The notes beneath the pieces were generated by a model. That model was not told where the DNA came from and did not search any database. It saw only the letters and a program-made list of their open reading frames with translations. The position numbers and the translations under genes are program-made. DNA of 64,000 nt, taken from NCBI RefSeq assembly GCF_058153355.1, contig NZ_CM177019.1; one strand, 5' to 3'. Shown here one piece after another: positions 63,219 to 63,995 of the stretch (within the stretch, counting starts at the first letter, position 1; every line of letters begins with the position of its first letter).

Positions 63219-63962
63219 ATGGCTGACAGTTTTCAGCTGAAGGCGATCATCACTGCCGTGGATAAGGTGTCGGCACCGCTGAAGGGAATGCAGCGCCAGC
63301 TGAAAGGCTTTAAAAAAGAGTTTGCCAGCCTGTCACTGGGCGCAGCGGGTGTCGGAACCGCAGTACTGGGGGCGCTGGCGCTCCCGGTCAAATCTGCCAT
63401 TGCCCTTGAATCAAAAATGGCGGATGTCCGGAAAGTGGTGGATGGTCTGGATACGCCGGAAGCGTTTAAGGCAATGACGGAACAGGTGCGCGACCTGTCG
63501 ACAGAACTGCCCATGTCGGCGGAAGGTATCGCCGAAATCGTGGCGGCGGGTGGTCAGGCGGGCATTGCCCGTGACGAGCTGATGCAGTTTGCGCGGGATG
63601 CTGTGAGAATGGGGGTGGCATTCGATACCACGGCAGACGAGTCCGGCCAGATGATGGCACAGTGGCGCACTGCGTTCAAACTGACTCAGGATGAGGTTGT
63701 GGGGCTGGCTGACAAAATCAACTTTCTCGGCAACACCGGTCCGGCTAATGCGAAAAAGATTTCTGATGTTGTGACCCGTATTGGCCCTTTAGGCAGTGTT
63801 GCGGGTGTGGCCTCCGGAGAGATCGCCGCAATGGGGGCAACCATTGCCGGAATGGGGGTGGAGTCAGAAATTGCTGCGACGGGGATAAAGAATTTTATGC
63901 TGTCGCTGACAGCGGGGAATTCTGCCACCAAATCGCAGAAAAAAGCGCTTCGCCTGTTGTAA
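63219..63962 (+). CDS. tape measure protein-like (N-terminal-type domain only, 247 aa)
   Basis: Gly/Ala-rich helical protein in the tape-measure position; ends with a stop followed by a strong hairpin. Confidence 0.5.
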   Translation: MADSFQLKAIITAVDKVSAPLKGMQRQLKGFKKEFASLSLGAAGVGTAVLGALALPVKSAIALESKMADVRKVVDGLDTPEAFKAMTEQVRDLSTELPMSAEGIAEIVAAGGQAGIARDELMQFARDAVRMGVAFDTTADESGQMMAQWRTAFKLTQDEVVGLADKINFLGNTGPANAKKISDVVTRIGPLGSVAGVASGEIAAMGATIAGMGVESEIAATGIKNFMLSLTAGNSATKSQKKALRLL

Positions 63963-63995
63963 TGCCAGTCAGTTAAGCAACTGACTGGCTCTTTT
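63963..63995 (+). terminator. hairpin GCCAGTCAGTT-AAGC-AACTGACTGGC followed by T-run
   Basis: 11-bp perfect stem immediately after the tape-measure-like ORF stop. Confidence 0.5.

Follow-up and report, generated by a model that had tools for sequence, protein, structure and literature searches.

The right end of IS4 abuts a truncated tape measure gene in a phiP27/SfV-type prophage

Results

The prophage and its surroundings

The window, by which we mean the whole stretch of 64,000 nucleotides analyzed here, has a chromosomal backbone that shares 98.4% identity with E. coli across the yeeO-amn-shiA region, and a prophage whose start (34608..35775) comprises a tRNA-Ser(CGA) gene (34608..34697) adjoined by a tyrosine integrase gene on the minus strand (34750..35775). 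The closest phage is the Stx2e phage phiP27, with approximately 95% DNA identity across the late region, and the element beside tRNA-Ser(CGA) appears to be of the phiP27/SfV type, with an HK97-like head and a Mu-like contractile tail. A related prophage in UMNF18 lies at a different tRNA-Ser, beside hyaA. Lysozyme, a Q-like antiterminator and the head genes are all present in the prophage, and the lengths of the upstream late genes (terminase, portal, protease, capsid, connectors, tail terminator, sheath, tube and chaperone) match those of phiP27 or UMNF18.

Several features were observed elsewhere in the window. A genomic island at approximately 16000..33616 adjoins a tRNA-Asn gene (33541..33616, minus strand) and carries a P4-type integrase gene (32117..33481) and a second integrase-like gene (30536..31423). 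It contains a Gabija-type defence locus (16368..20166, minus strand), in which gajA (18094..20166, 690 aa) gives a full-length match to the PADLOC GajA profile (E=3e-290), and gajB looks like a pseudogene because it is split into two open reading frames (ORFs), 16794..18122 and 16368..16748, that cover profile positions 4-435 and 453-575 of 579, respectively. The island also includes an ORF at 23355..24587 (plus strand) with reverse transcriptase and group II intron maturase domains (RVT_1 and GIIM), probably a group II intron. Three further island ORFs of 257-647 aa (20304..22004, 24853..26796 and 26799..27572) had no Pfam or PADLOC match. On the cbl-nac side, the identity of the island region to the best-covering E. 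coli genomes reaches only about 95%. Finally, 7900..15963 (minus strand) encodes a 2687-aa inverse-autotransporter adhesin of the YeeJ/intimin-invasin type, with an IAT_beta domain and 16 Big_1 repeats.

At the right-hand side of the window, three tail genes follow one another on the plus strand. The intact tail sheath gene (60956..62452, 498 aa; Pfam Phage_sheath_1, domII and 1C) is equal in length to the sheath genes of phiP27 and UMNF18, and it is followed by an intact tail tube gene (62452..62805, 117 aa; Pfam Tail_tube PF10618, E=4.4e-33). Next comes the gene for a tail assembly chaperone (62805..63226; Pfam Phage_TAC_7), with a first ORF of 109 aa at 62805..63134 that contains a canonical T_TTT_TTT slippery heptamer at 63062..63068. 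The -1 frame of this gene runs without a stop from 63041 up to a TGA at 63224..63226, overlaps the start codon of the tape measure gene and ends in ...INEEMKHG. The conserved arrangement of chaperone and then tape measure gene suggests that a long form of the chaperone is made by programmed frameshifting.

A tape measure reading frame of 247 codons

Directly 3' of the chaperone gene and its frameshift extension, which is where a tape measure protein (TMP) gene is expected in this family, lies an ATG-started ORF of 247 aa (63219..63962, plus strand, stop included). A first-pass annotation had described the interval 63219-63995 as a tape-measure-like frame of this length followed by an 11-bp stem and a T-run, and the ORF list and folding confirmed each of these elements. 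The product matches PF10145 (PhageMin_Tail) with E=4.8e-33 and 115.2 bits against a cut-off of 33.2. The alignment spans profile positions 2-156 of 201 only, and therefore the domain in this ORF is itself cut short.

Comparison with intact alleles defined the extent of the loss. The 247 residues are collinear with the N-terminus of WP_000785375, the 637-aa TMP of phiP27-like E. coli prophages (96% identical), and 238 of 247 (96%) are identical, without a gap, to residues 1-247 of the 637-aa "phage tail tape measure protein" of UMNF18. A search with the fragment returned no intact allele nearer than 96%. TMP lengths in phiP27-like prophages with Mu-type tails range from 637 to 649 aa, so that 63219..63959 represents codons 1-247 of about 637, or the first 39% of the normal gene. 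We also searched for the missing part: the C-terminal 390 aa had 488 homologues at E<=1e-50, and among the matches listed the full-length proteins were approximately 624-669 aa long and the shorter ones were mostly labelled partial. The 247-aa product falls outside this family range, within which the relatives at 637 and 649 aa lie, and the first-pass remark that it is far too short for a TMP is borne out. Judged by its sequence, the ORF is a 5' gene fragment without functional membership in the TMP family.

The end of homology could be placed to the base. When window positions 62400..64000 were compared by megablast with 5426 complete E. coli genomes, 51 records covered at least 80% of the query, with UMNF18 the best match, and in the best 30 of these 51 the alignment ended at query position 1554 or 1560. 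Query position 1560 corresponds to window position 63959, the final base ahead of the stop codon. In the DNA alignment, the window and the intact alleles agree up to ...AAAAAAGCGCTTCGCCTGTTG, after which the intact alleles continue with CGCATTGACCCGAAAAAA... and the window with TAATGCCAGTCAG...; that is, they diverge right after ...CGCCTGTTG, and CGCATTGACCCG of the intact alleles is replaced by TAATGCC.

The last 41 bases are the right end of IS4

The sequence beyond this point belongs to an insertion element. Positions 63960..64000 are identical in 41 of 41 bases to the IS4 end in strain UK_Dog_Liverpool and correspond to the first 41 nt, counted from the right end, of the 1426-bp element; the window ends inside IS4, at IS4 nt 41. 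A sequence search with the last 51 bases of the window found 5035 matching places, spread over 2577 of the 5426 E. coli genomes with at most 24 in any one genome; the annotation at those matches reads "IS4-like element IS4 family transposase". The TAA that terminates the ORF (63960..63962) is IS4 nt 1-3, the first bases of the inverted repeat.

The terminal inverted repeat and the transposase gene support this assignment. Alignment of both IS4 ends gave an 18-bp inverted repeat, TAATGCCAGTCAGTTAAG, at the right end (63960..63977) and TAATGCCGATCAGTTAAG at the opposite end, with the common pattern TAATGCC(A/G)(G/A)TCAGTTAAG. Ends of the IS4 subgroup have been reported to carry the signature -AATR--------WTW (PMC2266710), and this signature is found at 63960..63977. 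In a complete IS4 copy, insG is encoded on the opposite strand; its coding sequence stops 14 nt in from the right end, and the product ends in ...APKKSQSVA; the final bases of the window (63973..64000, minus strand) are identical to that stretch, and they hold the last 8 codons of insG (PKKSQSVA) and its stop TAA at 63973..63975. The junction, the identity of its two partners and their relative orientation can thus be read directly from the window.

A terminator-like hairpin within the IS4 end

Two bases 3' of the ORF stop, at 63964..63989, lies the hairpin GCCAGTCAGTT-AAGC-AACTGACTGGC, whose stems (63964..63974 and 63979..63989) form 11 perfect pairs, 6 of them G-C, around the 4-nt loop AAGC. 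It is directly followed by TCTTTTTCGG, with a T-run at 63990..63997, and the sequence that trails the stem-loop is TCTTTTTC. The fold energy is -22.8 kcal/mol and none of 200 dinucleotide shuffles folded as well (z = -5.07); in a search for terminator-like sites, this hairpin headed the list for 60000..64000. On the plus strand it conforms to the pattern of an intrinsic terminator, a G+C-rich stem and then a UCUUUUUC tail. On the minus strand, in the sense of insG, a hairpin of -19 kcal/mol forms without a U-tract. An Rfam scan of 60000..64000 returned no meaningful family, only a sub-threshold snoRNA match (E=0.27).

The whole structure, hairpin and T-run (63964..63997), is internal to IS4. 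The hairpin corresponds to IS4 nt 5-30: its first arm belongs to the inverted repeat, its second arm is complementary to the final codons of insG, the insG stop falls at the boundary of the stem-loop, and the T-run is complementary to the codons for Lys-Lys in ...PKKSQSVA. It is not a chance feature, since it is a fixed part of the IS4 terminus at the 5035 places in 2577 E. coli genomes. The strong hairpin reported in the first-pass annotation is therefore real, yet it is intrinsic to the right end of IS4 and not the terminator of a phage gene. Folding of the opposite IS4 end gave no comparable structure (z = -0.4 and -1.1). From its sequence, the hairpin with its T-run looks like a terminator for transcripts that enter IS4 from the phage side.

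The insertion site and its recurrence in other assemblies

Target specificity is described as striking in the IS4 subgroup, whose members have a single-ORF DDE transposase with a Y-2-R-3-E-6-K motif and produce target-site duplications of 10-13 bp (PMC2266710). We compared the window site with six complete IS4 copies, which occupy five different sites in E. coli and were oriented such that the end seen in the window lies on the left. All six copies are exactly 1426 bp long with flanking duplications of 11-14 bp. In their targets there is an A-run 4-8 nt upstream; the duplicated core is C-rich and ends in (T/A)G, and the downstream arm is T-rich. At hdhA-malI, the upstream sequence AAAAGGC is followed by the duplicated core ACCGCCTGTGTG and the downstream sequence CCACATTTTTT; at ygjV, the corresponding parts are GAAAACCC, CTCCCGCCGTAG and ACGAAAGG. 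The hdhA-malI copy of E. coli SWYHX138.261ft has an apparent duplication of 14 bp, compared with 12 bp at the same site in other strains, which probably reflects a one-base ambiguity at each boundary and not a separate event.

The reconstructed target in the window would read AGAAAAAAGCG upstream, CTTCGCCTGTTG as the duplicated core and CGCATTGACC downstream. Around the core, the site AAAAAAGCG, CTTCGCCTGTTG, CGCATT shows an A-run, a C-rich core that ends in TG and then ATT, and the reconstructed core is almost the same as that of hdhA-malI. The window site resembles the five IS4 targets in the same orientation, as far as a qualitative comparison over a small sample goes. One copy of the predicted duplication, (GC)TTCGCCTGTTG, would be formed by the last 11-13 bp of the TMP fragment (63947..63959). 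An IS4 target consensus of the AAA-N20-TTT type is general background that carries no weight as evidence here, and our literature search on the IS4 terminal hairpin or an IS4 target consensus found no specific paper.

Three independent Logan assemblies (SRR8656992, SRR31441161 and SRR28786219) contain a protein identical to the 247-aa product and a junction that agrees with that of the window in every base. Each of these contigs breaks approximately 25 nt into IS4, as would be expected at a repeat. Furthermore, the matching contig of the NCBI E. coli assembly GCA_043012465.1 ends 3 nt ahead of the junction, without IS4 sequence, which is compatible with the same insertion. The junction was found in none of the 5426 complete E. 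coli genomes by megablast, and exact junction searches did not find it in GTDB representative genomes or IMG/VR; in exact-protein look-ups, it occurred only on short-read contigs that end in IS4. Matches to the C-terminal 390 aa were either full-length proteins or unrelated partial ones and included no 3' TMP fragment from the same strains, and the cluster listings showed no TMP fragment of approximately 380-390 aa.

In Shigella sonnei (four loci), N-terminal TMP contigs end at nt 736-737, 4-5 nt upstream of the IS4 site, and in another assembly a C-terminal TMP contig begins at nt 768. The contig ends near this break show no IS sequence, and for this reason the Shigella sonnei breaks are not attributable to IS4; an independent IS insertion close to the IS4 site of the window is possible.

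Discussion

The junction is best accounted for by transposition of IS4 (1426 bp, DDE transposase InsG), which entered the TMP gene of a phiP27/SfV-type prophage immediately behind codon 247 of about 637; we assign this reading a probability of roughly 0.93. The right end of IS4 faces the 5' TMP fragment, with insG on the minus strand pointing toward it, and the TAA of the element closes the reading frame to give the 247-aa ORF. Part of the inverted repeat pairs with the complement of the last transposase codons to form the hairpin, which together with the T-run resembles an intrinsic terminator. The first-pass annotation had thus correctly suspected a split or truncated gene, in that the ORF holds residues 1-247 of a 637-aa TMP, and had missed the cause, the insertion of IS4 after codon 247.

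The clean stop and the terminator-like hairpin behind the ORF could also be taken for the end of a naturally short or split TMP gene with its own Rho-independent terminator, and annotated short homologues do exist in the databases. We consider this close to impossible: stop and hairpin are both IS4 sequence, the Pfam domain is cut at 156 of 201, and intact alleles read through the position. Homologues with the same short protein were named in the first-pass annotation as one of the findings that would refute a truncation; the short homologues proved to be contig-end partials or known pseudogenes, such as that created by the G5-to-G6 frameshift in ST64B. The identity of 63960..64000 with IS4 refutes a short gene with a terminator of its own. 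Only slightly more credible, and still very improbable, is a chimeric assembly in which a read from a collapsed IS4 repeat was joined to the prophage. IS copies are notorious for causing misassembly, and the window stops within one; however, the site agrees with the target preference of IS4, and the contig of GCA_043012465.1 stops just 3 nt short of the same point. Because the junction is identical in the three independent Logan assemblies, we do not regard it as an assembly artefact.

A different matter is what lies on the far side of the element. The IS4 end may be real and yet an IS4-mediated deletion, an inversion or recombination between copies may have removed or relocated the 3' part of TMP and some or all of the baseplate and fibre genes, which would leave a tail module that is truly truncated. 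The far flank of IS4 lies beyond the window and was not recovered from public collections, all short-read contigs stop at the IS, and an element present at so many places in a single E. coli genome (up to 24) provides substrates for recombination. Against this, the left half-site resembles a primary IS4 target in the usual orientation, and all upstream late genes are intact, which suggests a recent single event, although a later rearrangement would still be compatible with both observations. We therefore judge a rearrangement to be unlikely, if by no means far-fetched, and a simple insertion to be likely, in which case the remainder of TMP would come right after IS4 together with an intact tail module. 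Under a simple insertion into TMP, the DNA beyond the window would hold the remaining 1385 bp of IS4, ending ...CCTTAACTGATCGGCATTA, then an 11-13-bp direct repeat of (GC)TTCGCCTGTTG and then CGCATTGACCCGAAAAAACTGG..., which would be TMP codons 248-637. These would be followed by DNA-circularisation, baseplate and fibre genes; in the intact relatives phiP27 and UMNF18, the order is TMP, DNA circularisation, baseplate and tail fibres.

With IS4 in the TMP gene, no more than an N-terminal fragment of the protein, devoid of function, would be made from the phage late transcript, which would probably terminate at the IS4 hairpin. Without the C-terminal 390 aa, TMP is not expected to serve as the template of a tail. 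As late transcripts would meet the hairpin and its U-tract, the downstream baseplate and fibre genes would probably be under-expressed as well. The insertion is the only lesion visible in the late genes of the window, given that the lengths of the upstream head and tail genes match those of phiP27 or UMNF18. With its lysozyme, Q-like antiterminator and head genes present, the prophage is likely still inducible and lytic, and it would release tailless, non-infectious particles, as the ST64B prophage of Salmonella does. It should be flagged as probably defective, since heads can be made and proper tails cannot; in the annotation, an IS4 end should be entered for the last 41 bases of the window, and the 247-aa ORF should be labelled a pseudogene fragment of a tape measure gene.

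It is tempting to go further and propose that the right-end hairpin is a functional, orientation-specific terminator and that the stretch around TMP codon 247 is a recurrent IS4 hot spot, an idea that we regard as rather doubtful. If true, the right-end terminator would shield IS4 from read-in (antisense) transcription and would make insertions strongly polar from that side. The hot-spot part of the idea builds on the selection of targets by sequence in IS4 and on the Shigella sonnei contig breaks close to the site, and would mean that phiP27/SfV-like prophages are recurrently inactivated. What is found here is an ordinary inactivation of a prophage structural gene by a known element, of a kind already known: a textbook case of a prophage locked into the chromosome by an IS element, which opens no new question.

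Both partners of the junction have well-defined counterparts. Across the visible 41 of 1426 bp, there is no difference from IS4 of E. coli, the type member of the IS4 family and of the IS4 subgroup, with which the window shares the 18-bp inverted repeat, the C-terminal codons of the transposase and the hairpin; the end signature and the predicted class of duplication agree with the IS4 subgroup (PMC2266710). On the phage side, the gene order of sheath, tube, chaperone and TMP is common to the window and phiP27, whose TMP is L47 (NP_543099, 649 aa). Unlike the TMPs of phiP27 and WP_000785375, the TMP of the window stops at residue 247, the C-terminal approximately 390 aa being displaced by IS4.

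The insertion also recalls the way in which IS elements came to light. IS1, IS2 and IS4 were discovered through polar mutations in the gal and lac operons. As in those classical polar insertions, an IS in a gene of a long operon brings with it a stop codon and a terminator-like structure; in contrast to them, the operon is here the late operon of a prophage, and its polarity is a prediction.

A close parallel in a prophage of the same type is found in Salmonella enterica. There, the TMP homologue (three loci; approximately 81% aa identity) is split into 214 and 416 aa by a one-base expansion of a G-run, from GGGGG to GGGGGG, about 33 codons upstream of the IS4 site. Both a 4.68-Mb NCBI contig (subsp. 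arizonae) and a Logan contig that occurs in 15 samples retain this split, and the locus is 99.2% identical to phage ST64B. In PMC7067206, which cites Figueroa-Bossi and Bossi 2004, this phage is described as defective through a tail-gene frameshift and its particles as non-infectious and without a functional tail. ST64B of Salmonella Typhimurium and the prophage in the window thus belong to the same type, and in both a homologous TMP is inactivated by a single lesion; in ST64B, however, this lesion is a 1-nt expansion of a G-run, with no IS insertion and no terminator introduced.
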